A DNA stretch of 64,000 nucleotides, taken from positions 144,524 through 208,523 of the forward strand of contig JANLHP010000017.1 in NCBI GenBank assembly GCA_024654445.1, given 5' to 3'. The DNA comes from Candidatus Curtissbacteria bacterium. Lineage in GTDB: Bacteria > Patescibacteriota > Microgenomatia > Curtissbacterales > GWA2-41-24. Every line of letters starts with the position of its first letter. The stretch's first letter is position 1. Shown piece after piece: positions 7,002 to 51,150 of the stretch. The notes beneath the pieces are model-generated. The model was not told the origin of the DNA and made no database searches. It saw only the letters and a program-made list of their open reading frames with translations. The position numbers and the translations under genes are program-made.

Positions 7002-9305
7002 ATGAAAATCTTAAAAGTATTTACTGCCTTCCTTACCCTTTTTATTAATCTTGTCACTTTTGTCGGAGACGTAACTATTTGGGGGTTTCGAGGGATTTTT
7101 ATTTGGGTTGAGGGCTTAAGAAGAGTTCTGCGGATTCCAAAGAGGATGCCCAGTAGATTCAAGGGTGTTACTAAGGTCTTCCGACATCCCGTTATCCGTG
7201 AAGATTTCAGTTTTAAGGTGGGGCTTTTAATGATTTTTGTTTCAATGGGATTAATTTGGTTTGCGACAAAAGATCTTCCAAGCCCAAGACAGCTCGAAAC
7301 TAGAGAAGTGCCATTGACAACTAAAATATACGATAGAAATGGAGAACTACTTTTTAATGTGTACACAGACCAAAACAGAACTGTTGTTCCACTTTCCGAA
7401 ATTCCAGACAATTTAAAATACGCAACGATTGCGATTGAGGATCAGGATTTTTATAAACATAAAGGCTTCGATGTCTACGGCATTATAAGAGCAGCTAGAG
7501 AAACAGTGTTCCAAGGAGATATCCAAGGTGGTTCGACGATAACGCAACAGTTAGTTAAAAGCGCCTTTTTGACGCCGGAGCGAACTATAACAAGAAAGGT
7601 TAAAGAATTATATTTGGCTTTCCGGGTAGAAATGGCATACCCCAAAGACAGGATACTTGAAATGTATCTCAACCAAGTTCCGTATGGCGGAACGGCCTGG
7701 GGAGCAGCCGCAGCTGCCGAGCAATATTTCGGGAAAGATGTTAAGGATTTGACGCTCGCGGAATCCGCGCTTCTTGCGGGATTGCCCCAAGCACCAACTT
7801 ACTATTCCCCGTTTGGGCAAGATAAACAAAGGTCAGTCGAAAGACAGAGGCAGGTTTTGACAAGAATGGTTGAAGAAAATTACATCACAAGAGAGCAAGC
7901 CGAAGAAGCCGCAGCGCAACCGTTGGAATACAGGTCCGCGGCAACCGACATTAGGGCGCCTCATTTTGTAATGTTCGTCCGTGAATACTTGGCTGAAAAA
8001 TATGGCGAGGCTGCTGCCGCGCAAGGCGGGTTAAAGGTGACTACAACTCTTGAGTTGAAAGTTCAAGAGATGGCCCAAGGCCAAGTAACGGAAAACATCG
8101 ACAAGCTGAAAGCATTAAGAGTTGGAAACGGGGCTGCCGTAGTTACTAAACCACAAACCGGTGAAATCTTAGCGATGGTAGGGTCAAAAGACTTTTTCGA
8201 TACAGAAAATGACGGTAATGTAAACGTAACTGTTGCCAATAGACAACCAGGGTCTTCCATTAAACCAATTAATTACGCGACAGCGCTCGCAAAAAGACTT
8301 ATTACGCCGGCTACCGTGATTATGGACGTGCCAACTACTTTTTCGGGAGGACCACAACCTTACAGGCCTGTCAATTACGATGGTAAATTTCATGGTCCTG
8401 TTCAGGTAAGGTTCGCGCTTGCTAATTCTTACAATATTCCGGCTGTAAAGGTTTTAGGGTTAGTTGGCGTCGGCGAGATGATAAAAATGGCCAGGGAAAT
8501 GGGTATTACTACTTTTGAGGATGAGTCGCGATATGGGCTTTCTTTAACTTTAGGAGGAGGAGAGGTTAAGATGACAGAAATGGCGACTGCGTTTGGCGTT
8601 TTTGCCAACGAAGGTGTCCGCGTAGATCTTGTCCCCGTTTTGAAGGTTGAGGATTCCAACGGCAGAGTTCTTGAAGAGTTCAAGCCAAAAGCGGGTAGGC
8701 GAGTTCTTTCTCCGGAGATTGCATTTTTGATTTCTTCGATACTTTCCGACAACGGCGCAAGAAGTGCTGCTTTTGGCGCAAACAGCATGCTTAATATTAG
8801 AGGAAAGACTGTCGCTGTAAAAACCGGGACTACAGATGATAAGAGAGATAACTGGACGATTGGTTATAACCCTAGCTTTTTGGTTGTAACTTGGGTCGGC
8901 AATAATGACAACTCTCCGATGCATCCTTCACTTTCTTCCGGTGTAACCGGTGCTGCTCCTATTTGGAACGGAATAATGACGGCGCTTTTGAATGACAAGG
9001 TGAATGAAGCATTCAAAGTACCTTCGGGTGTTGTTGGCAAAGAAATTTGCACCTTGACCGGGGGGACAAAAAACGAGGGATGCAATAATCGATTTGAATA
9101 TTTCTTAGCTGGGACAGAGCCAACTAAAGATACATTCGCGAGATCTAAAGTGTGGATAGACAAGGAAACGGGAAAGGTTGTTCAGTCGGGATCACCAAAC
9201 GCGGAAGAGAAAGACGAAGTTATTATTTCGGACCCCTACTCTAAACAAGACTTCTGTGCGAGTTGTCCTAGGCCGGAGGCTTCCCCAAGTCCGCCCCCTA
9301 CATGA
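7002..9305 (+). CDS. class A penicillin-binding protein (GT51 transglycosylase + transpeptidase), PBP1A-like
   Basis: GT51 motifs EDQDFYKHKGFD and GGSTITQQLVK. Transpeptidase motifs SSIKP (SxxK) and KTGTT. N-terminal TM anchor. Confidence 0.85.
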   Translation: MKILKVFTAFLTLFINLVTFVGDVTIWGFRGIFIWVEGLRRVLRIPKRMPSRFKGVTKVFRHPVIREDFSFKVGLLMIFVSMGLIWFATKDLPSPRQLETREVPLTTKIYDRNGELLFNVYTDQNRTVVPLSEIPDNLKYATIAIEDQDFYKHKGFDVYGIIRAARETVFQGDIQGGSTITQQLVKSAFLTPERTITRKVKELYLAFRVEMAYPKDRILEMYLNQVPYGGTAWGAAAAAEQYFGKDVKDLTLAESALLAGLPQAPTYYSPFGQDKQRSVERQRQVLTRMVEENYITREQAEEAAAQPLEYRSAATDIRAPHFVMFVREYLAEKYGEAAAAQGGLKVTTTLELKVQEMAQGQVTENIDKLKALRVGNGAAVVTKPQTGEILAMVGSKDFFDTENDGNVNVTVANRQPGSSIKPINYATALAKRLITPATVIMDVPTTFSGGPQPYRPVNYDGKFHGPVQVRFALANSYNIPAVKVLGLVGVGEMIKMAREMGITTFEDESRYGLSLTLGGGEVKMTEMATAFGVFANEGVRVDLVPVLKVEDSNGRVLEEFKPKAGRRVLSPEIAFLISSILSDNGARSAAFGANSMLNIRGKTVAVKTGTTDDKRDNWTIGYNPSFLVVTWVGNNDNSPMHPSLSSGVTGAAPIWNGIMTALLNDKVNEAFKVPSGVVGKEICTLTGGTKNEGCNNRFEYFLAGTEPTKDTFARSKVWIDKETGKVVQSGSPNAEEKDEVIISDPYSKQDFCASCPRPEASPSPPPT

Positions 9306-9454
9306 CTTGAGGAGGATGATGATTCATTTAAAAAAAGCACACGATTTCGTAATTAACAAACAACTAATTTCATCACAATTTTCGCCATTGCGTATTTTGT
9401 GATGATTTTTCTATTTCGAGCACGCGGAACCTCAGCTTTCAAGCCGTGGGTAGT

Positions 9455-9832
9455 TTATTTCAAATGTTCTTTTATCCAGTCAGCGATTTCTTCAATCGTA
9501 GGTTTTTTGTTTTCGACCCAAAGAGCGAAGATAACGATCTCTTTGTTTGTCGCCTTAAAGCTTTTGCCGTTTAGTAACAAAAACTCAATCATCGAAATCG
9601 TTGCGGTTCTTTTATTGCCGTCTACAAATACATGATTTAGAAGTAAGGAATGAACAAGAGCTGCTGCTTTTAGGACTAGGTTTGGATAAAGATCTTTCCC
9701 CCCAAAGCTTGCTCGTGATCTTAAGACCGCAGATTCTAAAAGGCCTAGATCGCGAAGCCCTTGTAAACCACCGGTTGCCTCGACTAATTCAAAATGGATT
9801 TGGATAATATTTTGTGGCGTTAAAAACTTCAC
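9455..9832 (-). CDS. doc: Doc (death-on-curing) family toxin, Fic fold
   Basis: Motif HVFVDGNKRTA (Fic/Doc HxFxDGNKR). Matches the Doc pattern LLESA..R...FGG...YP......AAL. Overlaps the upstream gene by 4 bp. Confidence 0.8.
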   Translation of the reverse strand: MKFLTPQNIIQIHFELVEATGGLQGLRDLGLLESAVLRSRASFGGKDLYPNLVLKAAALVHSLLLNHVFVDGNKRTATISMIEFLLLNGKSFKATNKEIVIFALWVENKKPTIEEIADWIKEHLK

Positions 9833-10032
9833 TTTGAAGCGAGTTCTTCGAGGGCCGGTCGGTATTGATCTATCAACTTTTTCGTCAGATCGTGGATTTC
9901 ACGATCAGCAGTAAAAACTGGATCTACAGAGAAATTTACAGGATCGCCTACTTTGATACCTTTTTCTTCAAGAACTTTCTTCGGGATAGTCACGGCAACA
10001 GAATTGCCGACCTGAAAAGTTTTTTGGATCAT
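9829..10032 (-). CDS. AbrB/MazE/SpoVT-type (Phd-like) antitoxin
   Basis: 67-aa protein MIQKTFQVGNSVAVTIPKKVLEEKGIKVGDPV (swapped-hairpin DNA-binding fold pattern). A 4-bp overlap with doc gives a type II TA operon. Confidence 0.65.
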   Translation of the reverse strand: MIQKTFQVGNSVAVTIPKKVLEEKGIKVGDPVNFSVDPVFTADREIHDLTKKLIDQYRPALEELASK

Positions 10033-10216: not shown

Positions 10217-10876
10217 CTATTCAACAAATTTAAAGGTTGAGAGCATTTGGTCGAAGATTTTTTCCGATTCAGCAGAGTACTCTATCTCTGAACCAATACC
10301 ACTTGAAAGAATGAATTCATAAACATTACCTTTTTGAGAAGAAAATACGTGTTTACTTGGTGTTTCTCCCAATGTCCCGACAAATACGAGCGATCTAGGC
10401 AATGGCGATTGAGTTTGTTTGAGGTTTGCTTTAAGAATTGAGATCACTGGTGTTTTTCCATCGACCCCAGTCTGTGTGAATACAGTCTCTAGAAATTCTT
10501 CCAGAGGAATATTCTGAGGGTTCGGATAAACATTTATAAGTATATTCTTGCTATTTACTGTTTCATCACTTGGATTATTAAAACTAACGATGTTCGATTT
10601 TTCCGAAAAGTTTGTCGGGCTAATTACTTTAAGGTCTGGGGGGTATTTCAAAGAAAAATTATATTCGGTATTTGTATATGTTATCCAGTTGGCAGGAACG
10701 TCCATAACTACATCTACGGGTACTGCTGATTTATCAGTAGGTTGTTCGTGGGCTTTTCGGATCAGGTTAGAGTTGACGTAGATAGTTGCTGCTGTGATTA
10801 GCAGAATCACGGCAAGGCCGATCATTACTGGGGCAGGAATGAAGCCCCGCCTACCGGCGGGCAAGACTTTTCTCAT
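10217..10876 (-). CDS. hypothetical secreted/membrane-anchored protein
   Basis: 219-aa ORF with N-terminal TM (IGLAVILLITAATIYV). No family recognised. Confidence 0.4.
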   Translation of the reverse strand: MRKVLPAGRRGFIPAPVMIGLAVILLITAATIYVNSNLIRKAHEQPTDKSAVPVDVVMDVPANWITYTNTEYNFSLKYPPDLKVISPTNFSEKSNIVSFNNPSDETVNSKNILINVYPNPQNIPLEEFLETVFTQTGVDGKTPVISILKANLKQTQSPLPRSLVFVGTLGETPSKHVFSSQKGNVYEFILSSGIGSEIEYSAESEKIFDQMLSTFKFVE

Positions 10877-13650: not shown

Positions 13651-15144
13651 ATGGTTAAACAGTTCGTTGAACGGTACGACCGTCAAGTTCATAGGTTCTT
13701 GGAAATTTTACCTGGGACCTTTTCGTGGAGTTTAATTTTATTTCCCGTTTGGGGCTCTTTCTGGATTCCTCATTACGTTGCTTATTACATAATACTTTTT
13801 GACATTTTGTGGTTTTACAAATCGGGATCTTTGGCGATAACTTCTGTAATGTCCCACTTAAAATTGAATGCCGCTAAAAGATACAACTGGCTTTCGGACG
13901 CAAAAAAGCAGCCGGGATTTAATAAGCTGCATCATCTGATTGTTATTCCAACATACAAAGAACCTCTCCATACAATAGAAAAGGGGCTTGAATCTCTGGC
14001 TAATCAAGACGTTCCCAAAAGCGCGATTTCGGTAATTCTTGCTTTTGAAGAACGAGAGGGAGATGACGCGAAAGAAAAAGCAAAGGCGCTTGTTAAAAAG
14101 TTCGAAAAGAGATTTGCAAACCTTTTGGTTTCTTATCACCCCGATATTGCGGGAGAAGTTAAAGGAAAATCGAGTAACGAGGCGCATGCCGGGAAATACG
14201 CGAAAAGGGTTTTAGTAAATGAGCAAAAAAGAGACATAAATTACATTACAGTGACTTCAAAGGACGCTGACGGGATATTCCACGAAAAGTTCTTGTCTTG
14301 TCTTTCTTATAAATTCTTATCCGATGAAAGCGGGAGGCATCTTACTTTTTGGCAGCCGGTCATTCTTTTTTACAATAATATTTGGAGAGTCCCAGTTCCG
14401 ATACGAGTGATGAACAGTTTAAGTTCCGTTTGGCAAACTGGTCAGAACAGTAGAACGGACAGGCTTATTAACTATTCTATGTACTCGCTTTCTCTAAAGC
14501 TTTTGGACGATGTTGGTTATTGGGACGTAGATGTTATTCCCGAAGATTATAGAATTTTCTTCAAGAGCTATTTTGCAAAAGACGGTAAAGTAGATGTTGA
14601 CCCGATATTTTTGCCCGCGATGGCAGATGCCGCGGAATCAACGACGTATATAAAGTCGCTAACCAATTTTTACGAACAGGAAAAAAGGTGGGCTTGGGGA
14701 GTAAGTGACGACGCTTACATTATTAAAAAATGGTTAACGCATAGCCACATTCCTTTCTGGCAAAGAACAGTCAGGGTTTTTAAGGTCTTGGAAGATCACT
14801 TTCTTTGGCCGGTTAATTGGTTCGCGATAACGTTGGGGGCGACAATTCCTGTTCTTTTGAACCCTGTTTTCGCGCAAACTGTGATGGGACAAAATCTGCC
14901 GAGGATTTCTTTCGGGATACTTTCTGTCTGTTGGGTATTTTTGGCGATTATCTTAATTGTTGATTTTAGGCAGAGACCAAAAAGAGAAGGGCAGGTTTCT
15001 TTTATTAAAAAGGCAGTTATGCCTCTTGAATTTGCCCTGATGCCTGTTGTGACATTTATATTCACCGCCCTGCCGGGGATCGACGCTCATACAAGGCTGA
15101 TGCTTGGAAAATACTTGGAATATAGGGTCACGGAAAAAGTATAG
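13651..15144 (+). CDS. processive family-2 glycosyltransferase-like integral membrane protein
   Basis: IVIPTYKE (GT2 N-terminal motif), DAD (DxD-like), QEKRW (QxxRW) and multiple C-terminal TM helices. The ORF-track start at 13519 lies inside repeat B2, so ATG 13651 (MVKQFVERYD) is preferred. Confidence 0.5.
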   Translation: MVKQFVERYDRQVHRFLEILPGTFSWSLILFPVWGSFWIPHYVAYYIILFDILWFYKSGSLAITSVMSHLKLNAAKRYNWLSDAKKQPGFNKLHHLIVIPTYKEPLHTIEKGLESLANQDVPKSAISVILAFEEREGDDAKEKAKALVKKFEKRFANLLVSYHPDIAGEVKGKSSNEAHAGKYAKRVLVNEQKRDINYITVTSKDADGIFHEKFLSCLSYKFLSDESGRHLTFWQPVILFYNNIWRVPVPIRVMNSLSSVWQTGQNSRTDRLINYSMYSLSLKLLDDVGYWDVDVIPEDYRIFFKSYFAKDGKVDVDPIFLPAMADAAESTTYIKSLTNFYEQEKRWAWGVSDDAYIIKKWLTHSHIPFWQRTVRVFKVLEDHFLWPVNWFAITLGATIPVLLNPVFAQTVMGQNLPRISFGILSVCWVFLAIILIVDFRQRPKREGQVSFIKKAVMPLEFALMPVVTFIFTALPGIDAHTRLMLGKYLEYRVTEKV

Positions 15145-15274
15145 ATTTTAAGGAAGTAACCCTGTTCCTTGCTTCGCTTACGCTACGCAAGCAAATACGT
15201 GTAACCGAAAAGGTCTGATCGTCCCCTATCAAACTTGACTTTGGAATTTTCACTTGGTACCCTACTTGCTTCTG

Positions 15275-16513
15275 ATGCCAACTGTTCTTTCTGATCCTCT
15301 CCGGCGTAAGTTTACCGCTTCCCTCATGTGGGGAATTTTTGGGGCCCTAATTTTAGGGGTCTTTTTTTTAGGTCTTTTTTTGACCAACAACAGCCAGGGG
15401 TTTAAAAAATTCATCTCTCCGATTGTGGAGCGAGAATCTCCTTATGAAGTTTTTGGGTTTGCTCCATTTTGGACCTTATCCAAGATGGACAACATTGATT
15501 GGGACGTTTTAACAACCTTTGCTTATTTTTCTCTGCCATTGAATGCTGACGGGACAATCGACAAAAATTCACATGAGTGGAGCGTTTTCGAGGGTGATAA
15601 ATTAAGTTCTCTGTTCCAGAAGGCAAAAAACCATCAGGTAAAAAGGGTGGTCACTTTAACACAGATGGACGCCTCAACTATCGAAGTGTTTCTTGAGAAT
15701 CCTGAGGCTTGGAACAAACTCGCTTATGAGAGCGTCGACGTTATTAAGAGTCGGGATCTTGACGGAGTGAACATAGACATAGAATATATTCCTTCAAACA
15801 ACCACCTCAAAGATCAATTTTCCCAGTTTGTCCAAATATATTCAGGTATTTTAAATAAAAATCTGGACGATCCTTATATTACCGTTTCCGTACTTGCTTC
15901 TTCTGCGAGGTTTAACAGAATTTATGACGTCGGAAAATTGGCTGAAGCGACGGATGGCGTTTTTATGATGGCTTACGATTTCTACTACCCTGGTTCGGAA
16001 ACAATAGGTCCTTCGGCTCCCCTTTACGGCTACAACGGAGGCAAGGGTCCTTTCTGGTACGACGTTTCGACAGCAGTTGACGATTTTTTGAAAGTCGCGA
16101 GCGCCGACAAAATTATCATGGGAGTTCCCTATTATGGTTGGACTTATCCAGCTGCTGCTGAGGCCGCGCCGAAATCGGATAGAAATCTTGGTTTAAAAGC
16201 GTTCGCTACAACACTCGAAAAAGCTCAAAACAACAAGCTCCTTTCGACAACACCTATTGGAGGCTGGGACAGTCAAGCGCAAGTTGCCTGGAGAGGTTAC
16301 TGGGACGACAATGGCTGGCACGTGGTTTACATGGAGGACGAAAAGTCGCTTTCGATCAAATACGATTTTGCCAAAGAGAAAAAGCTTGCGGGCGTCGGTA
16401 TGTGGGCGCTGGGATTTGACGCGGACAGCGACAATATGTGGTCTGTGCTCGCCGGCAAATTCGATGATGAATTCTTAAGCTCAAACAACACCAATCAATC
16501 TTGGATATTTTAA
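15275..16513 (+). CDS. GH18-like glycoside hydrolase-like protein, membrane anchored
   Basis: Motif DGVNIDIEY resembles the GH18 DGxDxDWE catalytic motif (second Asp is Asn). C-terminal MWALGFD. Start ambiguous (TTG 15254, ATG 15275 or ATG 15326). Confidence 0.45.
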   Translation: MPTVLSDPLRRKFTASLMWGIFGALILGVFFLGLFLTNNSQGFKKFISPIVERESPYEVFGFAPFWTLSKMDNIDWDVLTTFAYFSLPLNADGTIDKNSHEWSVFEGDKLSSLFQKAKNHQVKRVVTLTQMDASTIEVFLENPEAWNKLAYESVDVIKSRDLDGVNIDIEYIPSNNHLKDQFSQFVQIYSGILNKNLDDPYITVSVLASSARFNRIYDVGKLAEATDGVFMMAYDFYYPGSETIGPSAPLYGYNGGKGPFWYDVSTAVDDFLKVASADKIIMGVPYYGWTYPAAAEAAPKSDRNLGLKAFATTLEKAQNNKLLSTTPIGGWDSQAQVAWRGYWDDNGWHVVYMEDEKSLSIKYDFAKEKKLAGVGMWALGFDADSDNMWSVLAGKFDDEFLSSNNTNQSWIF

Positions 16514-17586
16514 ATTTGTTAAGAAAAATACCACAGTTACTCGGCTCGGTCTTTAAAGTCGAAAAAAGGATAATTTTAATAGCCTTTATTGTTGCTCTTA
16601 TGGTTCTTTTTTATCGTTCAGAGAGCGATCTTTCCGCGAGCTCTCAACAAACATATGCAGACCCAAAAAGGACGGCTTTCGTTGAAGCGTCTAAAAAACT
16701 TACTGCCGGGAGTAACTGGACTCCAAAGGGATATGGGTCCGGCGAATACCTTGAGACGATTCCGAGAATCAAGGCAGGGGCGGTTATCGATTTTGATAGT
16801 GGGGAAGTAATCTGGTCGCAGAACTTAAAGAATAGAATTTCCCCCGCTTCTATTACTAAAGTCGCGACGGTGATGACTGCTCTTGATATAGCTTCAAAAG
16901 ACAAGGTAATTTCCGTTTCTGTAAAAGCCGCAGAGCAAATTCCAACGAAACTGGGGCTTGAGTTTGGCGAAAGGCTGACACTCGAGGAAGCTATCAAAGC
17001 ATCAATGCTAACTTCGGCAAACGACGCAGCGGAAGCAATTGCTGATTATTTGGGCAGTGATATCGGAGACGGTTCTGGGGCCTTTATGAATTTGGTAAAT
17101 TTGAAGCTTGAAAAGATCGGCGCGCTGGATTCGAACTTCGAAACTCCCACTGGTCTTGATGGCAACAACCATTATTCTACTGTTTACGACCTGGCAATTC
17201 TTGCCCATGAAGCAAAAGCAAACTATCCTTTTATAAACCAAATCGCGTCTAGTGAGTACATTAGGTTGGCGCCTAATGGAAATCATCGGTTGTTTGATCT
17301 CCCTAACTGGAACGCGCTTCTTGGTACTTATCCCGGTGTGGACGGGCTGAAAATAGGATATACGGAAAACGCGGGTCATGTTACTGCGGTTACGGCAGAG
17401 CGTGAAGGTAAAAAACTGATAGTTATCGTGATTGGTGCGAAGTCTCTCGAAGACCGAGAAATTGCAGCCGCAACGCTTCTTAATTACGGATTCGAAAAAA
17501 GAGGAGTGGAACCTTATTCTGTCGACGATCTAGATTTGGTGGAAAGATTTCAGGACTGGAAAAGACAGCTGACAATGCTACCCTAA
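16501..17586 (+). CDS. D-alanyl-D-alanine carboxypeptidase (peptidase S11, PBP5/DacA-like)
   Basis: Motifs SITK (SxxK), SANDAA (SxN) and KIGYT (KTG-like). N-terminal TM. Confidence 0.75.
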   Translation: MDILNLLRKIPQLLGSVFKVEKRIILIAFIVALMVLFYRSESDLSASSQQTYADPKRTAFVEASKKLTAGSNWTPKGYGSGEYLETIPRIKAGAVIDFDSGEVIWSQNLKNRISPASITKVATVMTALDIASKDKVISVSVKAAEQIPTKLGLEFGERLTLEEAIKASMLTSANDAAEAIADYLGSDIGDGSGAFMNLVNLKLEKIGALDSNFETPTGLDGNNHYSTVYDLAILAHEAKANYPFINQIASSEYIRLAPNGNHRLFDLPNWNALLGTYPGVDGLKIGYTENAGHVTAVTAEREGKKLIVIVIGAKSLEDREIAAATLLNYGFEKRGVEPYSVDDLDLVERFQDWKRQLTMLP

Positions 17587-17587
17587 A

Positions 17588-18318
17588 CTAGGTTTTGGGG
17601 ATTTTCGCGCTTACAACGTGAGCGGCATTAGTTTTTAAGATTGGTGCACGATTTGACGCTGTCACTCCTTTTATGACAGGTTGTTTTCTGTCTGTTCTTA
17701 CAGTGTATCTCCAAGAGAGATATACCGAAGGGTCATGTCCGTCTACAAGCCCGATACTAACTCCGCCTGCTCCGGGCAAACGCGTTAAATAGGGAACGCC
17801 CATTTCTTTTTGAGAACCGGTTAAAAGGAGCCCCGTGGAATTTAAGACGTTTGGATTTTGAAAAAAAAGGTTCAATCCTTCAACAAGACTCAGGCCGGCT
17901 TCGTTTGGGCTTACAGATTTATTGTCTTTAACTTCTTGCGAGATAACATACGGGCCGGTGCTTGCAGGCGGATCAAAACTAAGAATATTAATTCTCCTTG
18001 CTTCCTGTGTTATAAGCTCTCTCGGAACTTTTCCCTTTTCTATTAATTTTAAGGGGGCGTTTGGGTCTACAACAACGGCATGAGGCCTTGCTCTTGAAGA
18101 GAAGTGAACTGACTTTTTAATGAAGAATACGAATCAACACTTGAAGCACAACCTAATTCCACTAGGTTTTCCGCCTGATTTTGCCATAACACTTCCGGTG
18201 TTATCTCTTTTTTCTGTCTTTCTCTTCTTTTAAAGAATCGTCTAAAGAGTCCGGGTTTGGGTTCTTCCAGAGAAGACTCCATAACTTGATGGTATTTGGC
18301 TATGTGGCTATTTGTCAA
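17588..18318 (-). pseudogene. 3D/DPBB-like (MltA/RlpA-like) domain gene apparently split by a frameshift (ORFs 18067..18318 and 17588..17875 plus open upstream frame)
   Basis: The frame of ORF 17588..17875 stays open for 63 more codons upstream with no start codon. It encodes AVVVDPNAPL...NEAGLSLVEGLNLFF, resembling 3D-domain VDP...DTGxAIKGNxIDLFF. The upstream ATG ORF 18067..18318 is in another frame and overlaps it. Confidence 0.3.
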
Positions 18319-18343
18319 TTTGGACCTGTGACCCTATACTAAA

Positions 18344-19663
18344 ATGGAAATGTTTTCCCTTGCCCAAAACTACGTAACTCGAGGTTTTTGGGGAGACGAG
18401 GCGTGGACTTCTTTAATTTCTCAACTCCCGTACTCGCAAATGCTTAAAACTACGGCTGCGGATTTTCATCCTCCGGGTTACTATACGGTTGTCGGCCTCG
18501 TTTATAGGTTTTTTCCTCCTACCGAAATCGCCACAAGGCTCATTTCCGTCTTTTTTTATCTTCTGACAATTTTGGTCGTTTACAAGTTTGCCAGTGAATT
18601 TAAGGGTAAAACATTCGGACTACTGTCTGCTCTTGTTCTTCTTGTTAACCCCATATTTTTAACTTACGCGTTTGAAGCGCGCAACTATACGATGTTTGCT
18701 TTTGCCTCGGTTTCTTCTGTTTACTTTTTGAACCGGCTTTCTTCAAAATTTAATTTTGTTAACGTAATCGGCTTCGTATTATTTTCGGCTCTGGGCTTGT
18801 ACACGCATTATTACATGCTTTTTGTACTTGCGGCAGAAGCGTTTTATATTCTTCTTTTTGACCGCAAAATTTTAATTAAGTCTGTAGGCCTTTTTGCCGT
18901 CGTCGGCGCTTTGTTTTTACCTTGGGTACCTTTCTTGCTTTCGCAGGTTACTTCGGTCGGAGAGAGTTATTGGATTGGAGGAATCGACGAGAGGACGCAC
19001 TTTGAAGCGGTTTTGAGGATACTTGCCGGAGAACATTTTAATCCATTTCAGATGATTTTATTTGCTGTTTCGACGGCGCTTATTGTGCTTGGCCTTGTGC
19101 AGCACATAAGACGCAGGTCTTTTGAAAAGCCGTACGCCTTAATCTGGCTTTGGGCAGTTATGCCGCTAATTCTGGCTTCACTGCCGGGACTTAAGGTCGG
19201 CGAATTTCGGCTGCCATTCAGACCCATTTTTTTCTGGCGCTATTTGATACCTGCGGCGGTTCCTTTTTCGATGATCATCGTACACAGCGCCCAGAAATTT
19301 CCCGGGCCTTTTTATAAGCTATCGATTACTGCGGTGATCGTTTTGAGCCTGGCGATAGATTACCTGACATTAAGTCGTTATCCTCTTACGTTCAAACAAA
19401 TTTATGCTCAAGAGGTTGTCCCGCAAATTCAACAGGGCGACAAGATAGTAACGGTTCTTCCTTCTTTTGCAGAAGTTTTGTATTACAGAAACAGGAATGG
19501 TCTCACTAATGAACTTGTTGTGCTTTCCGTGGGTCTTGTACAATTTTCCGGCAAAAGTTTGCTAGATGCATACGTTGCAAATGGGGTTGTTAAAATTCAA
19601 GAAAATGTAGAGGAGCCTTATTTTTATCTTTCGCCAGGACCAAAAATTGAAGTTCGGAGGTAA
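18344..19663 (+). CDS. GT-C fold glycosyltransferase (ArnT/PMT_2, GT39/GT83-like)
   Basis: About 11 TM helices. First-loop motif GDEAWTS (DE motif). Overall ArnT-like topology. Confidence 0.55.
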   Translation: MEMFSLAQNYVTRGFWGDEAWTSLISQLPYSQMLKTTAADFHPPGYYTVVGLVYRFFPPTEIATRLISVFFYLLTILVVYKFASEFKGKTFGLLSALVLLVNPIFLTYAFEARNYTMFAFASVSSVYFLNRLSSKFNFVNVIGFVLFSALGLYTHYYMLFVLAAEAFYILLFDRKILIKSVGLFAVVGALFLPWVPFLLSQVTSVGESYWIGGIDERTHFEAVLRILAGEHFNPFQMILFAVSTALIVLGLVQHIRRRSFEKPYALIWLWAVMPLILASLPGLKVGEFRLPFRPIFFWRYLIPAAVPFSMIIVHSAQKFPGPFYKLSITAVIVLSLAIDYLTLSRYPLTFKQIYAQEVVPQIQQGDKIVTVLPSFAEVLYYRNRNGLTNELVVLSVGLVQFSGKSLLDAYVANGVVKIQENVEEPYFYLSPGPKIEVRR

Positions 19664-19665
19664 TT

Positions 19666-21144
19666 ATGAAAAAAGTATTCGCTGACTTTAGACGCCACCA
19701 TATTATTTTTCTTTTAATTCTCGGTGCTATTTTTCTGTTTAGGCTCCCTTCTCTGTTTGAACCTTTTTGGTATGGAGATGAGGGAATTTTTGCGGCAGTT
19801 GGGCGAAACTTAAATTTTGGTGGGACTTTGTACCAAACTGCCTGGGACAATAAACCCCCAATGATTTATTTGACTTATGCTGCGATTTTTAAAACGTTTG
19901 GTGTCTCGATGTTTTGGTTAAGGTTGGTTACCCTAGTTGTCGCACTTGTTACAGCTGCTGCGATTTACGAAATTGCGCAGAAAGTACTGGGAGAAAAAAG
20001 GGCACTTTTGGCGACTGGGATTTTTGGGGTTTTGTCGTCTCTGCGGATCATTGAGGGCAACTTGGCTCTAACAGAAATTTTTATGATTCTGCCGATTTCT
20101 CTTGCATTTTTGGTTGCCATCAAGAGAAATTTTGATTATCTTTCTCTTTTTGCTGCAGGTCTACTTTTTGCACTAGGTTCTCTTTACAAGCAAGTCGGGG
20201 CACTAGAAGCTGCAGCCCTTGGTATTTTCTTGTTCGTCTACACAAAAAGGTTTTTAGAGTTTGTTAAAAAGGGTTTTGTGCTGACACTGGGTTTTCTAGT
20301 CCCATATCTTTTCTTTATTCTTTACTTTGCTCAAAAAAATCTTGTGGGGGAATATATTTTTGCGGCTTACACTTATTACCAAATTTACCTTAACGAAAGC
20401 CCACAGTATCAGATTTTTATAAATATTTTGAAGTTTATGCCAATTGTTGCAAGCATTGCTTTTGCAATTTATCAAAAGAAAAAAGGGCAGGTAAGTCTTT
20501 TAAATCTTTTTTTCCTCTGGGGTGCTTTTTCGTTTCTTGGTAGCTTTTTTTCGGGCCGAACTTATGGTCACTATTTGGTCCAGGGAGTCCCTGCGCTTTC
20601 ACTTCTTCTTGCGTCCATTCCAAGAAAAATAGACTTCAGACGGAGCTTTGTTGTTTTTCTTGTTTTTTTCGCACTTCCCTTACTTTTGCTTTTTAAATTT
20701 CTTTTTGCCGACTACGGTGTAGTGGAACTGAGGACGCAGGTTAAATACTGGAAGAACTTTTTTAGTTTTGCTTCGGACGGTAGAACTTTAAGCCAATACA
20801 ACGATTCGTACGATTCTAACGTTAACAAGATAATGGCGCTTGATAATTTCATAAGGAGCCGGGAAGCGAGAGGTAAAACTGTGTATGTGTGGGGGGACAT
20901 TGCTTGGCTTTATGCAATTTCTGATCTTAACAACCCCTCGAGATACGTTACATCCTTCCATGTTTTTGGCGTACCAGGCGGACGGGAAGAAGTAATAAAT
21001 AATTTGCGCGAAAACCCCCCTGTTTACATAATCCTCGCACCCAGCTCGATCGGTTATTTTGACGAACTTGAGAAGTTACTTGCAACTTCGTATACTCATA
21101 CCTCAACTGTTGAAGATTCACGAATTTTTCAAAGAAAGGATTAA
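19666..21144 (+). CDS. GT-C fold glycosyltransferase (ArnT/PMT_2-like), second tandem copy
   Basis: FWYGDEGIFAAVGRNL (DE motif in first periplasmic loop). Polytopic membrane N-terminal half and a soluble C-terminal domain. Confidence 0.55.
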   Translation: MKKVFADFRRHHIIFLLILGAIFLFRLPSLFEPFWYGDEGIFAAVGRNLNFGGTLYQTAWDNKPPMIYLTYAAIFKTFGVSMFWLRLVTLVVALVTAAAIYEIAQKVLGEKRALLATGIFGVLSSLRIIEGNLALTEIFMILPISLAFLVAIKRNFDYLSLFAAGLLFALGSLYKQVGALEAAALGIFLFVYTKRFLEFVKKGFVLTLGFLVPYLFFILYFAQKNLVGEYIFAAYTYYQIYLNESPQYQIFINILKFMPIVASIAFAIYQKKKGQVSLLNLFFLWGAFSFLGSFFSGRTYGHYLVQGVPALSLLLASIPRKIDFRRSFVVFLVFFALPLLLLFKFLFADYGVVELRTQVKYWKNFFSFASDGRTLSQYNDSYDSNVNKIMALDNFIRSREARGKTVYVWGDIAWLYAISDLNNPSRYVTSFHVFGVPGGREEVINNLRENPPVYIILAPSSIGYFDELEKLLATSYTHTSTVEDSRIFQRKD

Positions 21145-21147
21145 GTT

Positions 21148-21540
21148 ATGAGGGTAGGTAATCTGTCTGGCGCGAGGATAGAATTTACACAAAATGCTCA
21201 GAAGAACATCGCTGGAGATAGGCTTTCATTTTTTTCGTTCTCTTTCTTTCTGTTCTCGATTTTGATTCAGTCGATGTTAATTTTGCTCGTATGGTCGAAA
21301 CTGCCTCCGCAATTGCCTATCTTTTTTTCAAGGCCTTGGGGGGAGAACGTTCTCGCGCCTAAGCTTTTCCTGTGGTCGCTGCCTATTATTACAGTTCTGT
21401 TTTTTTTCGTAAACTATTTCGCTTCGTTGACTTTGGCGAGGGGAAATTTATTTCTTTTTAGAATTATTGTGGTTTTTAGTTTCATTGTTTCCCTTCTTAC
21501 ACTTTACGACACTCTCAAAATTGTTACGCTTTTAACATGA
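21148..21540 (+). CDS. hypothetical small membrane protein (3-4 TM)
   Basis: 130-aa hydrophobic ORF sitting between the GT-C and WecA-like genes. A 4-bp overlap with the downstream gene suggests one operon. Confidence 0.35.
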   Translation: MRVGNLSGARIEFTQNAQKNIAGDRLSFFSFSFFLFSILIQSMLILLVWSKLPPQLPIFFSRPWGENVLAPKLFLWSLPIITVLFFFVNYFASLTLARGNLFLFRIIVVFSFIVSLLTLYDTLKIVTLLT

Positions 21541-22622
21541 CGTTCACGCTGACATTTTTAGCTGCCTTTTTAGTTTCTTTAATCTTAACCCCAATTACAA
21601 TTGTGCTCGCTAAAAAATTTAAATTCGTTGATGACCCGAAGCTTAGAAAGCATCCGGCTCTTATTCATAAAGTTGTAACCGCAAGAGCTGGTGGTGTGCC
21701 AATTTTTCTTGCTTTTTTGTTGGTGAGCATTCTTTTAGTTGAACCGAGTAAAAAATTAGCGGGGATCCTGCTTGGAGGTTGGATTCTTGTTTTGGTCGGT
21801 TTAATTGACGATAAAGCGGAATTGCCGAGTATCGTAAGACTTCTTTTCCAATTTCTAGCAGCGCTGGTTGTTGTTGCCAGCGGTGTCGGTATCGCTTTTA
21901 TCCCAAACCCGGTTTCAGCGCTACTCGGTCAGGGTTACGATGTTATTAGACTCGATACTATTCGTTTGTCTTTTGAGTTTTTTGGTAATCATTCACTTTT
22001 ATTGCTCGCTGATCTTTTTGCGCTTTTTTGGATCGTTTGGGTAATCAACATGGTTAATTTTTCGAGTGGCGTCGATGGACAAATGCCGGGAATAGTAATT
22101 GTTACTCTAATGGTAATTTTTGTCGCGTCACTCCGATTTTATCCTCATGATCCGAGCCAGACCGTTGTGAGTCAACTGGCTTTAATTGGAGCTGGATCAG
22201 CGCTTGGATTTTTAATTTTTAATTTTTATCCTGCAAAAATTTTCCCCGGCGATTCCGGCTCTTATTTTCTGGGGTTTTTAGTCGCGGTCGTTGCAATCCT
22301 TTCGGGAGCAAAAGTGGGGACTGCGATTTTAGTAATGGCCATCCCGCTTATTGACGGTGTATTTACTATTATAAGAAGATTAGTAAGTGGTAAGTCTCCT
22401 TTTCTTGGAGACAGGAAACATTTACACCACAGGTTGATAGAGTTGGGTTGGTCGCAGAGAAGAGTAGCATTGTTTTATTGGTTTCTGTGTGCTATTTTAG
22501 GTGCGGCTGCATTGCAACTTGCCTCTATTGAAAAACTTTTTGCAGCAGTAGTTGTCGCTGTTATTGTCTTAGGAGGACTAGTTTGGCTAAATATGAATTT
22601 ACCACAAAAGGCCCGCAGATAA
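21537..22622 (+). CDS. polyprenyl-phosphate N-acetylhexosamine-1-phosphate transferase (GT4 MraY/WecA family)
   Basis: Motifs NMVNFSSGVDGQ (NxxNxxDGxDG) and PGDSGSYFLGF. About 10-11 TM helices. Confidence 0.75.
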   Translation: MTFTLTFLAAFLVSLILTPITIVLAKKFKFVDDPKLRKHPALIHKVVTARAGGVPIFLAFLLVSILLVEPSKKLAGILLGGWILVLVGLIDDKAELPSIVRLLFQFLAALVVVASGVGIAFIPNPVSALLGQGYDVIRLDTIRLSFEFFGNHSLLLLADLFALFWIVWVINMVNFSSGVDGQMPGIVIVTLMVIFVASLRFYPHDPSQTVVSQLALIGAGSALGFLIFNFYPAKIFPGDSGSYFLGFLVAVVAILSGAKVGTAILVMAIPLIDGVFTIIRRLVSGKSPFLGDRKHLHHRLIELGWSQRRVALFYWFLCAILGAAALQLASIEKLFAAVVVAVIVLGGLVWLNMNLPQKARR

Positions 22623-23593
22623 TCTGGTTGCCCTTTTGGATTTTTGTTAGCGCACGCCCGCGTCAATGGCTTAAAAATTTAGCACTTTTTGCTCCACTTG
22701 TTTTTGAAGGCGTTTTTTTTGACCCCATTAAATTTTGGCTCGTCGTTTTAGGCTTTTTTATTTTTTCGCTTGCAACTTCTTCCATATATATAATCAACGA
22801 TGTAATTGACGTCGAAAAAGACAGGGCTCATCCATTTAAGAGGAAACGCCCAATTGCAGCCGGAAGGATACATCCTAACGTTGCTCTTATTATTGCGATT
22901 TTGGGACTTGCGCTGGCGATATTTGTTTCGAGCCGTTTTTCGCCATTTTTTACTTTGGCGCTTTCCGCCTACGCAATTTTGCAGATACTTTACTCGCTAT
23001 TTTTAAGGTCGATTATTCTAATCGACGTTATGGCGATTGCGTCGGGATTTTTGCTAAGAGTTTTCGCCGGAGCGGTTTTGATCGACGCGCACGTTACTGT
23101 TTGGTTTATTTTGACGGTTGCAAGTCTGGCGCTATTTTTGGCTATCGGAAAAAGAAGGTCGGAACGGACTCTTTTGATGGGTTCGGAGGAGAAGTCGCTT
23201 GCGACAAGATCTATTCTTCTTCATTATCCCGAGTCACTTCTGGATTCGTTGACAGTAATGTTTGCAACGGCTACGTGGTTTTCTTATACGATGTTTACTT
23301 TTTTGCAGCCGCCGCCAGGTTCCGGCGCACAGGTTTTGGTGTTGTTTGGAGATTATCTGCCTAGGACGTTTTTGGCTTCTAAATGGCTGATGGTGACTGT
23401 GCCTTTTGTTATTTATGGGGTAATGAGATACATGTACGTCATTCACGAAAAAAAAGAAGGGGAATCACCGGAGCGAGTATTATTGTCTGATATTCCTTTA
23501 CTTTCGACAGTGCTGTTCTGGATCGTAATCGTCTTTTTTGTAATCTACGGCGGAGAATTCTTACCTCAAAAGTTAATTCAGTATTTGCAGTAA
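22583..23593 (+). CDS. UbiA-family prenyltransferase, decaprenyl-phosphate phosphoribosyltransferase (DPPR synthase)-like
   Basis: RPRQWLKNLALFAPL and NDVIDVEKDRAHPFKRKRPIAAG (UbiA NDxxDxxxD motif in a DPPRS-like context). Start uncertain (ATG 22583 overlaps the upstream gene by 40 nt). Confidence 0.65.
   Translation: MAKYEFTTKGPQIIWLPFWIFVSARPRQWLKNLALFAPLVFEGVFFDPIKFWLVVLGFFIFSLATSSIYIINDVIDVEKDRAHPFKRKRPIAAGRIHPNVALIIAILGLALAIFVSSRFSPFFTLALSAYAILQILYSLFLRSIILIDVMAIASGFLLRVFAGAVLIDAHVTVWFILTVASLALFLAIGKRRSERTLLMGSEEKSLATRSILLHYPESLLDSLTVMFATATWFSYTMFTFLQPPPGSGAQVLVLFGDYLPRTFLASKWLMVTVPFVIYGVMRYMYVIHEKKEGESPERVLLSDIPLLSTVLFWIVIVFFVIYGGEFLPQKLIQYLQ
23549..23593. repeat. direct repeat DR1 (3' end of UbiA-family gene)
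   Basis: ggcggagaattcttacctcaaaagttaattcagtatttgcagtaa. Repeated at 24245-24289 (about 38/45 identical). Both encode GEFLPQKL(I/L)QYLQ*. Confidence 0.7.
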
Positions 23594-48809: not shown

Positions 48810-48865
48810 TTTGGTTTAAATTCTAAATCACAAGCACCAAATTACAAACGGTTAAAGTAATTTTC

Positions 48866-48884
48866 AATTTCTAATTTCTAATTA
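48866..48884. repeat. conserved intergenic motif CAATTTCTAATTTCTAATT (copy 2)
   Basis: Upstream (minus strand) of the epimerase-DUF4012 gene. Confidence 0.5.
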
Positions 48885-48937
48885 AGAATTTAAAATTTAT
48901 TTGTTTGGTATTAGTAATTTGCGATTTGGTCATTTGT

Positions 48938-49492
48938 TTACACCTTAAAGTAAGTTTTTAAACTAATTGCAAAAATCGCCATTGCGGCACCTGCTAGTAG
49001 TCCTGCTGTAACGAAGACTATTTTGTTTGCTTTTGTGAAAGCGGGTTCTGGCGCAGTGCCTAGGGGTTGCAAAGTTGATTTTTGGTTTGAAACTTCTAAG
49101 GCTGCGACTTTGGTATTGTACGAATCCTGGATTTTTTGCATCAGAGATGTGCTAGCTTCTTTGCTTTTGGAAAATGTGGTTATTTGCAACACTTGAGGCG
49201 CTAACTTTTTAACACTGATCGACTCGCCACTATTCATAACTTCGGTTTTAAAATCCGCACTTTCTATTATGGCTTGGGCTGTATCTGTAAAGTTGCGTGT
49301 TTTTTCCTGAACGAAAAATGCTTCTGTATTGTTTGCTTCGACGCCCGGTTTGATGAAAAAAGTTTTACTGTATTTATACCCGGAAGGGATTTTGACAGTG
49401 ACAAGAATTGCGATCACTGCTCCAAAAAGCATGAGGATTAAAACGAAGGTTGCGTTTTTTCTAAGGATTTTTAAGTAATCTTTAAGTTCCAT
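48938..49492 (-). CDS. Wzz-like polysaccharide chain-length determinant-like protein
   Basis: 184 aa with N-terminal LKDYLKILRKN, a TM, a periplasmic segment and a C-terminal TM. This is the Wzz topology. Confidence 0.4.
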   Translation of the reverse strand: MELKDYLKILRKNATFVLILMLFGAVIAILVTVKIPSGYKYSKTFFIKPGVEANNTEAFFVQEKTRNFTDTAQAIIESADFKTEVMNSGESISVKKLAPQVLQITTFSKSKEASTSLMQKIQDSYNTKVAALEVSNQKSTLQPLGTAPEPAFTKANKIVFVTAGLLAGAAMAIFAISLKTYFKV

Positions 49493-49516
49493 TACAAATT
49501 GTTAATTGTTGATTGT

Positions 49517-49912
49517 TTATTGGGCATCGAGTGCGATATTTACTTGTGTGTCTGCTTCTTTGTTTTTTTCTCTTGGAATGTGTATGTAATTAACTTTTCC
49601 GAAGCTTGCTTCAAGACCTCTCACTTCTAGAACAAGCTCGCGAATTTTTGCGTTTTTTATCTTGTAAAGACCTGAGAGCTGATAAACAACGAGTTGAGAA
49701 TCCAAAAAAACATTAAGGTCTTTCCCTTCGAATTCTTTTTTTGCCCACCCAAGAGCCTTGATGAGGGCAGTATACTCGGCAAAATTATTGGTTGCAATTC
49801 CAAGATATCCGCCTTCTTTCTTGACCGTTTTATCGTCGACTTTGACGACGAACCCGTAAGCTGCAGGACCAGGATTTCCTCGTGCACCTCCATCTGTAAA
49901 AATTTTTATCAC
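49517..49912 (-). CDS. rnhA: ribonuclease HI
   Basis: IFTDGGARGNPGPAAYGFVV and conserved acidic residues (D, E, D...D). 131 aa. Confidence 0.85.
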   Translation of the reverse strand: MIKIFTDGGARGNPGPAAYGFVVKVDDKTVKKEGGYLGIATNNFAEYTALIKALGWAKKEFEGKDLNVFLDSQLVVYQLSGLYKIKNAKIRELVLEVRGLEASFGKVNYIHIPREKNKEADTQVNIALDAQ

Positions 49913-51150
49913 TTTTTACCTACTTTCAAGGCAAGTAGGGAGAGCGCGAGAACTAAGGCTTCGGAAATTACGGTAACGGTGCTTGCGGCAATGAAGCCGT
50001 ATTTTGGGATGAAAATCAGATTGGCTGCTACGTTGAATACTGCGCCTAATGCATAAACTGCAATGAGGTACTTCTGTTTGTTGTGGATTATTAACACATG
50101 CCAGACGAGTGCCGAGAGGAAAAAGAAAGGCATGCCAAGGGCAAGAATTTGGAGGGATATTTTAGACTGAGCAAATTCTTCACCGAAAAGCGTTGGAATA
50201 AAAAGCGACACGGCCATCAAAGAAACTCCAAGAAGTATTGAAAATCCTACGAGAGAGATAGACCAGAATCTTATTTGTTTTTTAAACTCGGCTAAATTTT
50301 CTTTGAATACTTTCTGCAACAGGGGATAGAGCGCATTTGCAAAGAATATCGGCACTGCAAGAGCTGCTTGGAAAAACTGGTAAGCAAGGCCATAAATACC
50401 GACTTCTACAGTTGTTCTTGTTGTGGAAAGGATAAGAACGTCTACGCGGAAGTAGATAAGATTGAGAAGCAATGCGAGGCCCACCGGCCAAGATGATAAA
50501 AGAAGAGACTTGGAGTTTTCCATGTCGAAAATAGGTGCTAGTGACTGGTTGAATTTTTTTGCAATGAGAATAAATGACACTAAGGTGTAAACTGCGCTTC
50601 CTAGAATGAAAAGGACAACAAATGGCATCAGCGAATTTGAAAGCGAGGAAAGCAAGAAGACCCCAACTAACGTCGCTAATGATCCGACGACGGTTGCGAT
50701 TGCCGAAAGGTCGTAGCGCAGGTGTTTTTGGAAAAGGGCATTTGCGGTCGTGAAGAGGGCCTGTGTGATTATAGTTAGCGAAGCGACTGAGATCCCTAAC
50801 TTTACGAGCGGGCTGAATCCCGTTGAGGTGTTGTGGTCGTATGGAAGAAAAAAGGTGACCAAAATAGCAATGAGCGCTAGGGCAATTGAGAGCAATATCC
50901 TTAAGCCGATTAGGGCTCTAAACAGTCTGCTTTCGTCTGGTGCTGCTGCGTCTTTTACAAAGAAAGCATTTAACCCGAAATCAGCAAGAGTGTAAAAATA
51001 TCCGACAAAAACGAAAATTTTAGTGAATTCTCCGTAGCCTCGAGCGCCGAGAGTTCTGGCGATTATTAAGGTGACGATGAGTGTCGTTGTCGCAGAAACT
51101 CCCTTGGCAATTACTTGCGCGCCAGTATTGTAAATGACTTTTTTGAACAC
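49909..51150 (-). CDS. Wzx-like oligosaccharide flippase (polysaccharide biosynthesis protein, MOP superfamily)
   Basis: 413 aa with about 12 TM helices. N-terminal YNTGAQVIAKGVSATTTLIVTLIIARTLG is typical of Wzx/RfbX. Confidence 0.6.
   Translation of the reverse strand: MFKKVIYNTGAQVIAKGVSATTTLIVTLIIARTLGARGYGEFTKIFVFVGYFYTLADFGLNAFFVKDAAAPDESRLFRALIGLRILLSIALALIAILVTFFLPYDHNTSTGFSPLVKLGISVASLTIITQALFTTANALFQKHLRYDLSAIATVVGSLATLVGVFLLSSLSNSLMPFVVLFILGSAVYTLVSFILIAKKFNQSLAPIFDMENSKSLLLSSWPVGLALLLNLIYFRVDVLILSTTRTTVEVGIYGLAYQFFQAALAVPIFFANALYPLLQKVFKENLAEFKKQIRFWSISLVGFSILLGVSLMAVSLFIPTLFGEEFAQSKISLQILALGMPFFFLSALVWHVLIIHNKQKYLIAVYALGAVFNVAANLIFIPKYGFIAASTVTVISEALVLALSLLALKVGKK

Follow-up and report, generated by a model that had tools for sequence, protein, structure and literature searches.

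Introduction

The closest described counterparts of the gene block analysed here are the three-component systems (PPPRS, flippase and GT-C) for extracytoplasmic glycosylation with pentofuranose of Kelly et al. 2024 (PMC11127046), exemplified by ORF15-ORF14-ORF12 of Citrobacter youngae O1/O2, in which a polyprenyl-phosphate 5-phosphoribosyltransferase (PPPRS) resembling Mycobacterium tuberculosis Rv3806c is encoded beside one or more ArnT-like GT-C glycosyltransferases in a glycan locus. Known systems further need a 5-phosphatase (a HAD PRP domain or Rv3807c) and a flippase (MATE, GtrA or SMR), and sugars other than ribose require epimerases as well (DprE1/DprE2 or ORF13); when no epimerase is linked, the default sugar is ribofuranose (PMC11127046). 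In a 64-kb stretch of DNA (the window) from Candidatus Curtissbacteria, a Microgenomates lineage of the candidate phyla radiation (CPR) with a genome of roughly 1 Mb, an initial annotation had pointed to a gene cluster that plausibly encodes a polyprenyl-phosphate-pentose pathway. We show that its UbiA homologue, a predicted PPPRS, belongs to a conserved block whose order is a processive GT2 synthase, an optional ArnT-like GT-C, a small protein with three transmembrane (TM) helices, a predicted polyprenyl-phosphate N-acetylhexosamine-1-phosphate transferase (PNPT), and UbiA.

As in the three-component systems, an Rv3806c-like enzyme is found next to ArnT-like GT-Cs, and the block is likewise free of epimerase genes. 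Unlike those systems, the CPR block lacks a fused or adjacent HAD phosphoribose phosphatase and has no MATE or GtrA flippase, its GT-C is classed as PMT_2 type by Pfam, and it adds both a PNPT with a dedicated three-helix partner and a synthase similar to hyaluronan synthase (HAS) and BcsA. It is also a vertically conserved core locus and not a variable serotype island. Four enzyme classes (PNPT, processive GT2, PPPRS and GT-C) are shared with the arabinogalactan and decaprenyl-phosphoarabinose (DPA) pathway of mycobacteria and corynebacteria, which comprises WecA Rv1302, GlfT2, UbiA Rv3806c, Rv3807c, DprE1/DprE2 and the Aft/Emb GT-Cs. In contrast to that pathway, neither DprE1/DprE2 nor a PAP2 phosphatase turned up in the window or the flanks of related loci; the GT2 is predicted to be a membrane-channel synthase, whereas GlfT2 is a soluble polymerase; the GT-Cs resemble ArnT and not Aft/Emb; and the lipid carrier is probably not decaprenyl phosphate. 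The WecA-primed, synthase-dependent O-antigen of Salmonella O:54 (WbbE/WbbF) resembles the CPR block in joining a PNPT initiator to a membrane-integrated processive QxxRW GT2, and the class I hyaluronan synthases are a further likeness for the GT2 of the block.

Two plasmids carry informative PPPRS loci. On pF27D of Lactococcus cremoris (NZ_CP068515.2), the PPPRS likewise belongs to a single-membrane bacterium and to a wall-polysaccharide locus without an epimerase; its gene is followed by those for a HAD-IB phosphatase and a GtrA flippase, neither of which the CPR block has, and lies near Wzx, Wzy-like and LCP genes. The 462-aa membrane protein encoded nearby on pF27D matches no Pfam family and shows no detectable likeness to the two GT-Cs of the window, GT-C1 and GT-C2. 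On a Chondrinema litorale plasmid, the PPPRS gene precedes FAD_binding_4 and adh_short genes, with PMT_2 GT-Cs on the flanks. The UbiA homologue of the window matches the Lactococcus enzyme with E 3e-48 and the Chondrinema enzyme with E 7e-48.

We found no published description of this cluster in CPR or Patescibacteria in the literature, and CPR taxa are unmentioned in the supplement of Kelly et al. The precedent for the pathway concept is their study (PMC11127046), and the idea is not wholly new; what is unusual, judging from predicted gene functions, is the combination of a PPPRS with a PNPT plus its putative subunit and an HAS-like synthase in a vertically conserved core locus.

Results

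The UbiA homologue is a predicted phosphoribosyltransferase of the Rv3806c type

Open reading frames (ORFs) of the window were annotated by Pfam and NCBIfam profile scans, and six-frame ORFs served for phmmer searches. Against the NCBIfam models for decaprenyl-phosphate phosphoribosyltransferase (DPPR synthase) the UbiA homologue scored 214.2 bits (NF008977), 195.6 bits (NF008978) and, for a third model, 143.3 bits. PRK08238, a 482-residue model named 'UbiA family prenyltransferase', gave 153 bits in a match confined to its C-terminal part. The remaining UbiA-subfamily models reached 54 bits or less, PRK12884 prenyltransferase scoring 53.6 bits and ubiA, cyoE, ChlG and GGGP about 30 bits at most. 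When the PDB was searched by sequence, the sole matches were the Rv3806c entries 8J8J and 8J8K (E 8e-33).

In Rv3806c, phosphoribosyl pyrophosphate (PRPP), Mg2+ and decaprenyl phosphate are contacted by R22, K28, Y70, N73, D77, D81, K87, R90, Q135, Y138, K143 and Y157, and the phosphoribose contacts are not conserved among other UbiA enzymes (PMC10994848). Ten of these 12 residues are identical in the window protein (R25, K31, Y69, N72, D76, D80, K86, R89, Q134 and Y137), the other two being conservatively replaced (R142 and F156). The first eight of the ten, R25 to R89, are invariant across 70 diverse homologues chosen as representatives at 50% clustering. The motif NDVIDVEKDRAHPFKRKRPIAAG, which the initial annotation had quoted as a DPPR-synthase signature, is located at residues 72-94.

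Because of the DPPR-model scores, a PDB match limited to Rv3806c and the conservation of substrate residues, we take the product of this gene to be a PPPRS. The contrast in hidden Markov model (HMM) scores, the PDB match and the residue comparison bear out the earlier assignment to the DPPR-synthase (Rv3806c) type and not to the MenA, UbiA or ChlG type; by HMM scores and residues, the protein does not group with the quinone or chlorophyll prenyltransferases. The family is large, with 1,478 clusters at 50% identity (E <= 1e-30), and the nearest relatives of the window protein, 119 matches beyond the identical protein, come almost entirely from Curtissbacteria. In NCBI records the identical protein, from a Curtissbacteria metagenome-assembled genome, goes by the name 'UbiA prenyltransferase family protein', and some proteins of the group already carry a phosphoribosyltransferase label in databases.

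A five-gene block is conserved across Microgenomates and WWE3

A search seeded with a 13-sequence UbiA alignment identified 80 species-level genomes with close UbiA relatives, all of them Microgenomates-type CPR or WWE3, and the ORFs of the related loci were compared with the window proteins. Presence was counted in the 68 non-redundant loci with sufficient upstream DNA. PNPT and the small protein are each encoded upstream of UbiA in 67 of these, GT2 in 61 and a GT-C in 43; all five genes occur together in 37 loci. The PNPT gene is immediately upstream of UbiA in 67 of the 68.

The wider order MetRS-TatD-GT2-(GT-C)-small protein-PNPT-UbiA recurs, and beyond UbiA, on the opposite strand, come genes for a PEGA/SH3 protein and then an M23 peptidase, a bPH protein and GroEL. 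The block is found in Curtiss-, Davies-, Levy-, Beckwith-, Collier-, Gottesman-, Pace- and Cerribacteria and in WWE3, and it is unbroken in three loci with rearranged flanks (L005, L079 and L080). This arrangement exceeds chance, and the block is apparently an ancestral trait of this CPR class. Given the recurrent five-gene order, the cluster in the window is an older block of five genes that has been enlarged in this lineage. The initial annotation had considered such a cluster unexpected in a minimal CPR-like genome, a view at odds with the conservation of the block, together with housekeeping neighbours, across Microgenomates and WWE3.

Variants of the arrangement were also seen. In three Curtissbacteria loci (L001-L003), the genes from GT-C1 to UbiA stand behind a transketolase gene, and GT2 is absent within the 10 kb upstream flank. 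A DUF2079 protein is inserted in two loci (L004 and L010) and an Acyl_transf_3 protein in another (L043), insertions of the kind that a polysaccharide locus would lead one to expect.

Some of the loci come from metagenome-assembled genomes titled 'uncultured Gammaproteobacteria' or 'Pseudomonadales' (binchicken assemblies, HK-STAS-PATE-15; L011, L015, L016, L018, L019, L026, L028, L035 and others). They show the Microgenomates-type synteny from MetRS-TatD-GT2 through to GroEL, and their proteins are about 50% identical to those of the window. Because of this gene order, the Gammaproteobacteria and Pseudomonadales labels are probably wrong.

A three-helix protein accompanies the PNPT

The PNPT scored 100.9 bits against the NCBIfam WecA model (cut-off 326) and 67.9 bits against MraY (cut-off 192), both below threshold; in the PDB it matched MraY with 58 bits and GPT with 24 bits. 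We predict a polyprenyl-phosphate N-acetylhexosamine-1-phosphate transferase, probably WecA/TagO-like rather than MraY, as it is closer to WecA while reaching neither equivalog cut-off.

The small protein encoded just upstream has three TM helices and a loop motif, LPPxxPxFYSxPWGExQL, that is conserved in the alignment. An HMM built for its family found matches in 84 loci, always immediately upstream of PNPT. In four WWE3 loci (L071, L075, L076 and L084) the small protein forms the N-terminus of a PNPT of 501-505 aa (E about 1e-10), and on the strength of this fusion we regard it as a probable partner of PNPT rather than a donor flippase. A role as a GtrA or SMR analogue was considered and rejected as the best reading on the grounds of three instead of four TM helices, the conserved loop motif, the lack of a family match and the WWE3 fusion. 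The same four WWE3 loci hold, between the fused PNPT and UbiA, an ORF of 222-229 aa (about 9280-9975) that by eye resembles an OmpR-type winged-helix response regulator.

GT2 and GT-C2 have synthase-like and ArnT-like predicted folds

The GT2 ORF opens at a TTG codon at 13519; the ATG at 13651, which gives a protein of 497 aa, fits the 496-500 aa homologues and is the likely start. Its motifs are a DxD (D249/D251), an ED motif (PEDYR, with D343) and QxxRW (QEKRW, Q387-W391), all of which are invariant in a family of 121 sequences with a mean column identity of 72%. Sequence and profile searches of the PDB returned no match to any solved synthase. Foldseek searches with an AlphaFold2 (AF2) model (pLDDT 90.8) gave as best matches hyaluronan synthase 7sp7 (E 5e-10), BcsA 4p00/9b8v (TMq 0.55) and chitin synthases (Chs), and the alignments with HAS, BcsA and Chs span the whole length, about 530 columns. 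Taken with the motifs, the fold match identifies GT2 as a predicted membrane-channel processive synthase of the HAS/BcsA/chitin-synthase type. In Daviesbacteria (L013-L015, L018-L023 and others) GT2 is about 590-605 aa long and has an additional N-terminal segment of about 90 aa with hydrophobic helices; in the same loci a GT-C is missing between GT2 and the small protein.

For GT-C1 and GT-C2, PDB searches by sequence and by profile yielded nothing useful. GT-C2 is the GT-C with wide conservation in the block. Its AF2 model (pLDDT 91.0) has an ArnT-like fold with a C-terminal alpha/beta domain, and Foldseek returned ArnT 5f15 as the best match (E 1.7e-6, TMq 0.54), ahead of STT3/AglB/PglB, Pmt4 and AftA. 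Residues invariant in the family are D38 and E39 in the first outer loop, D61, K63 and P65, E130 and G131, and R298, Y300, H302 and Y303; the family motifs are DNKPP, EGN and RxYxHY. Precomputed annotation lists PF27757 for many GT-C2 relatives (e.g. P0392 and P0397), and these proteins have no match in the Pfam version used here, which does not contain PF27757.

GT-C1 has a WGDEAW loop motif and is without the first TM helix. It is 26% identical to GT-C2 over 208 aa of the N-terminal half, in an alignment beginning 19 residues earlier, and an in-frame stop at 18329-18331 lies upstream of its ATG. It is present in 10 related loci and is a paralogue mainly of Curtissbacteria.

The proposal that GT-C enzymes use the UbiA product remains plausible: a GT-C gene lies between GT2 and UbiA in about two thirds of the loci, and the fold is ArnT-like. 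The pairing of GT-C and PPPRS has a precedent in the Chondrinema plasmid, where PMT_2 GT-Cs flank a PPPRS that is accompanied by DprE1/DprE2-like genes.

Gene layout and lineage-specific insertions

The nine genes in this part of the window (Table 1) are close-packed on the plus strand according to the ORF calls, with neighbours in the block overlapping or less than 25 bp apart. All eight genes named in the initial annotation are present in the same order, and Pfam and NCBIfam scans uphold each family call.

Table 1. Genes at 13.5-24.2 kb of the window, with the profile matches of their products.
Gene	Position	Strand	Profile match
GT2	13519/13651-15144	+	Pfam PF13632 Glyco_trans_2_3, 30.5 bits
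GH18	15254-16513	+	Pfam PF00704, 124 bits
DacA-like Peptidase_S11	16501-17586	+	Pfam PF00768, 131 bits; NCBIfam DacD/DacA/VanY-D matches
GT-C1 (PMT_2)	18344-19663	+	Pfam, 45.5 bits (cut-off 26.1)
GT-C2 (PMT_2)	19666-21144	+	Pfam, 38.6 bits (cut-off 26.1)
Small membrane protein, 130 aa	21148-21540	+	No Pfam or NCBIfam match
PNPT	21537-22622	+	Pfam PF00953 Glycos_transf_4, 118 bits
UbiA	22583-23593	+	Pfam UbiA, 62.6 bits
Membrane-anchored protein, 203 aa	23597-24208	+	PsbP_2, 17.5 bits (below cut-off)

The GH18 protein has an N-terminal membrane anchor and the catalytic stretch DGVNIDIE, and the DacA-like protein is a member of the serine D-Ala-D-Ala carboxypeptidase family with an SITK motif. 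Among the related loci, both genes adjoin the block in L008 and L010 only, apart from the window itself. GH18, DacA and, for the most part, GT-C1 are insertions particular to the Curtissbacteria lineage and not part of the core block. The boundaries first drawn for the cluster, which had placed GH18 and DacA on a par with the rest, need revision accordingly, with GT2 as a core member.

A gap of 757 bp (17587-18343) divides GT2-GH18-DacA from the genes running from GT-C1 to UbiA. A hairpin resembling a terminator comes right after DacA, the gap holds remnants of minus-strand ORFs, and a promoter-like site is located 4 nt upstream of the GT-C1 ATG; the pattern scans behind these features were not significant. 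The hairpin, the remnants and the promoter-like site together suggest two transcription units, one on either side of the gap. One minus-strand frame (17588-18121) stays open for 177 codons, has no ATG, GTG or TTG before its last 95 codons and no Pfam match, and may be a decayed gene or a user of an unusual start.

The last gene in Table 1, absent from the initial gene list, starts 3 bp past the UbiA stop. ORF comparison with the window proteins revealed no homologue of its product in the related loci L001-L086; the gene is probably co-transcribed with UbiA, yet specific to this genome. A second membrane-anchored, weakly PsbP_2-like protein (27.3 bits) is encoded at 10217-10876 on the minus strand, and the two genes bracket the region.

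The search for phosphatase, flippase and epimerase genes

Pfam scans of essentially all sizeable ORFs in the 64-kb window detected no FAD_binding_4/DprE1-like, SDR/DprE2-like, PAP2, HAD or GtrA gene, and none of these accessory genes was found within 10 kb on either side in the related loci. The Chondrinema DprE1/DprE2-like proteins and the Lactococcus HAD and GtrA proteins, used as phmmer queries, had no match among the six-frame ORFs of the window and of L001-L088. The arabinose (DPA) flavour that the initial annotation had given to the pathway therefore finds no support in the genes of the window or of these flanks. Since no epimerase is linked, the donor is more likely to carry ribofuranose than arabinofuranose.

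The sole flippase candidate in the window is a Wzx-type MOP protein (Polysacc_synt/MatE) encoded at 49909-51150, 26 kb from the block. It lies in a second polysaccharide locus (45936-52440, minus strand) with genes for a DUF4012 protein of 957 aa, a Wzz-like protein, an RNase H/RVT_3-like ORF, the Wzx-type flippase and a Wzy_C/O-antigen-ligase-like protein. This locus could share the PNPT of the block as its initiating enzyme. MetRS and TatD genes form a general bacterial pair, and TatD was rejected as the missing phosphatase given this general association and no other support.

Other features of the window

A replication-origin-type set occupies 52538-58038, with genes for Jag/KhpB-like, YidC and RnpA proteins on the minus strand followed by DnaA (55239-56597) and DnaN (56899-58038) on the plus strand; the cumulative GC skew shows no visible turn there. 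A homologue of the 23S rRNA intervening-sequence protein is encoded at 58120-58437. On the minus strand at 59371-63951, a gene for a 1049-aa protein adjoins one for a TraG/VirD4-like P-loop ATPase, and the pair is possibly a DNA-uptake or secretion module.

Discussion

We interpret the block, with moderate confidence, as an ancestral Microgenomates/WWE3 operon for an envelope glycan that receives pentofuranose, in particular ribofuranose, and that has been enlarged in this Curtissbacteria lineage. The UbiA enzyme would transfer ribose-5-phosphate from PRPP to polyprenyl phosphate at the cytoplasmic face of the membrane; an unlinked phosphatase would remove the 5-phosphate, and an unlinked flippase would turn the lipid-linked ribofuranose outward. 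GT-C enzymes would then pass the pentofuranose to an extracytoplasmic acceptor, the likeliest and most economical candidate being a glycan that owes its start to PNPT and/or its polymerisation and export to the GT2 synthase. Ribofuranose is preferred to arabinofuranose as the sugar because no epimerase is linked. The GH18 protein and the DacA-like carboxypeptidase, as later insertions, would probably serve as trimming enzymes in that envelope compartment, acting on peptidoglycan or on a polymer that contains GlcNAc. Read in this way, the block belongs in kind with the three-component pentofuranose systems.

Several observations weigh against this interpretation. The UbiA homologue falls below both equivalog cut-offs, if narrowly (214.2 against 234 bits for NF008977, 195.6 against 207 bits for NF008978). 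The phosphatase and flippase that the pathway requires were not found in the window or flanks. Between GT-C1 or GT-C2 and the GT-Cs of the Lactococcus and Chondrinema clusters, no similarity in sequence was detected. About one third of the loci (e.g. in Daviesbacteria and Collierbacteria) have no GT-C in the block, so that coupling of PPPRS and GT-C is not obligatory in cis. Finally, the entire neighbourhood from MetRS to GroEL is syntenic, and adjacency could partly reflect inherited gene order instead of functional coupling.

This last point leads to the alternative that survives best, which we nevertheless consider unlikely: that the genes are adjacent without being coupled. On a frozen chromosomal region, PNPT and GT2 would make one polymer, the GT-Cs would glycosylate proteins or lipids with hexose from a donor produced in some other place, and the product of the UbiA enzyme would have a different purpose. 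In its favour are the extension of synteny to unrelated housekeeping genes (MetRS, TatD and GroEL), the lack of a GT-C in 24 of the 67 loci having PNPT, and L001-L003, which retain GT-C1 to UbiA with no GT2 in the upstream flank. However, their shared strand and overlapping frames indicate that the genes are co-transcribed; every member has polyprenyl phosphate or a membrane-associated glycan as its target; the block outlasts rearrangement of its flanks; and PPPRS products are not known to serve in any role but that of donor to GT-Cs (PMC11127046, PMC10994848).

A second alternative concerns the acceptor, and we rate it lower still. The GT-Cs might O-glycosylate surface proteins such as type IV pilins, S-layer or wall-bound proteins with the lipid-linked pentose, as Pseudomonas aeruginosa TfpW does, arabinosylation of pilin being the precedent for a protein acceptor (cited in PMC11127046). 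The Pfam match is indeed to the protein O-mannosyltransferase family PMT_2, and STT3, PglB and Pmt4 are among the structural matches of GT-C2; its best structural match, however, is to the lipid A-modifying ArnT. Moreover, a glycan synthase and PNPT, and not a protein substrate, are the partners found throughout the block, and neither the window nor the flanks contain a linked pilin gene.

It is improbable that a decaprenyl-phosphoarabinose-type pathway begins here, with GT-Cs that transfer arabinofuranose in the manner of Corynebacterineae or of pilin glycosylation in P. aeruginosa. The first enzyme would be identical in type, as DPPR-synthase scores and the match to Rv3806c attest; PMT_2 GT-Cs accompany a PPPRS and DprE1/DprE2-like genes on the Chondrinema plasmid; and epimerase genes could sit elsewhere in the genome of about 1 Mb, of which 64 kb were seen. 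Against this, no FAD_binding_4/ALO or SDR gene was present among the scanned ORFs of the window, the Chondrinema DprE1/DprE2-like queries were matchless there and in L001-L088, and epimerases, where they are used elsewhere, adjoin the PPPRS (Chondrinema; PMC11127046). GT-C2 is also much nearer to ArnT than to AftA, AftB or AftD.

That the UbiA homologue, a member of the Pfam UbiA family, acts as an ordinary prenyltransferase on an aromatic or haem substrate (MenA, UbiA, CyoE or ChlG type) is most improbable, a reading effectively refuted by scores of 20-30 bits for such subfamily models as opposed to 214 bits for the DPPR-synthase model, by the lack of any PDB match besides Rv3806c, and by the retention of phosphoribose contacts that other UbiA enzymes do not conserve (PMC10994848).

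A broader and more tentative proposal can be made. The block may represent an ancestral, near-universal polymer pathway of Microgenomates and WWE3, in which PNPT with its new three-helix 'PWGE' subunit works alongside the HAS-like synthase and the glycan is ribofuranosylated on the outside from polyprenyl-phosphoribose. Among CPR, such a polymer would correspond to arabinogalactan or wall teichoic acid, and it would possibly be essential for ultra-small, host-dependent cells and for surface recognition.

Microgenomates are tiny and uncultivated and probably spend their lives attached to other cells, and experiments have revealed almost nothing about the glycans of their envelope. Retention of the block from Curtissbacteria to WWE3, in organisms that have shed most of their biosynthesis, would mark its polymer as indispensable to them. 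With this block the pentofuranose pathway, only lately defined, reaches into CPR, where genes for a phosphatase, a flippase or an epimerase are not linked to it, and the three-helix protein is a candidate new accessory subunit for PNPT, a much-studied family of drug-target enzymes. As a lead into CPR envelope chemistry the block is useful and, in principle, no surprise. It supplies concrete enzymes that can be tested, an assay for PPPRS being already available, and ribofuranose is suggested as a chemical signature by which these cells may be labelled or detected.

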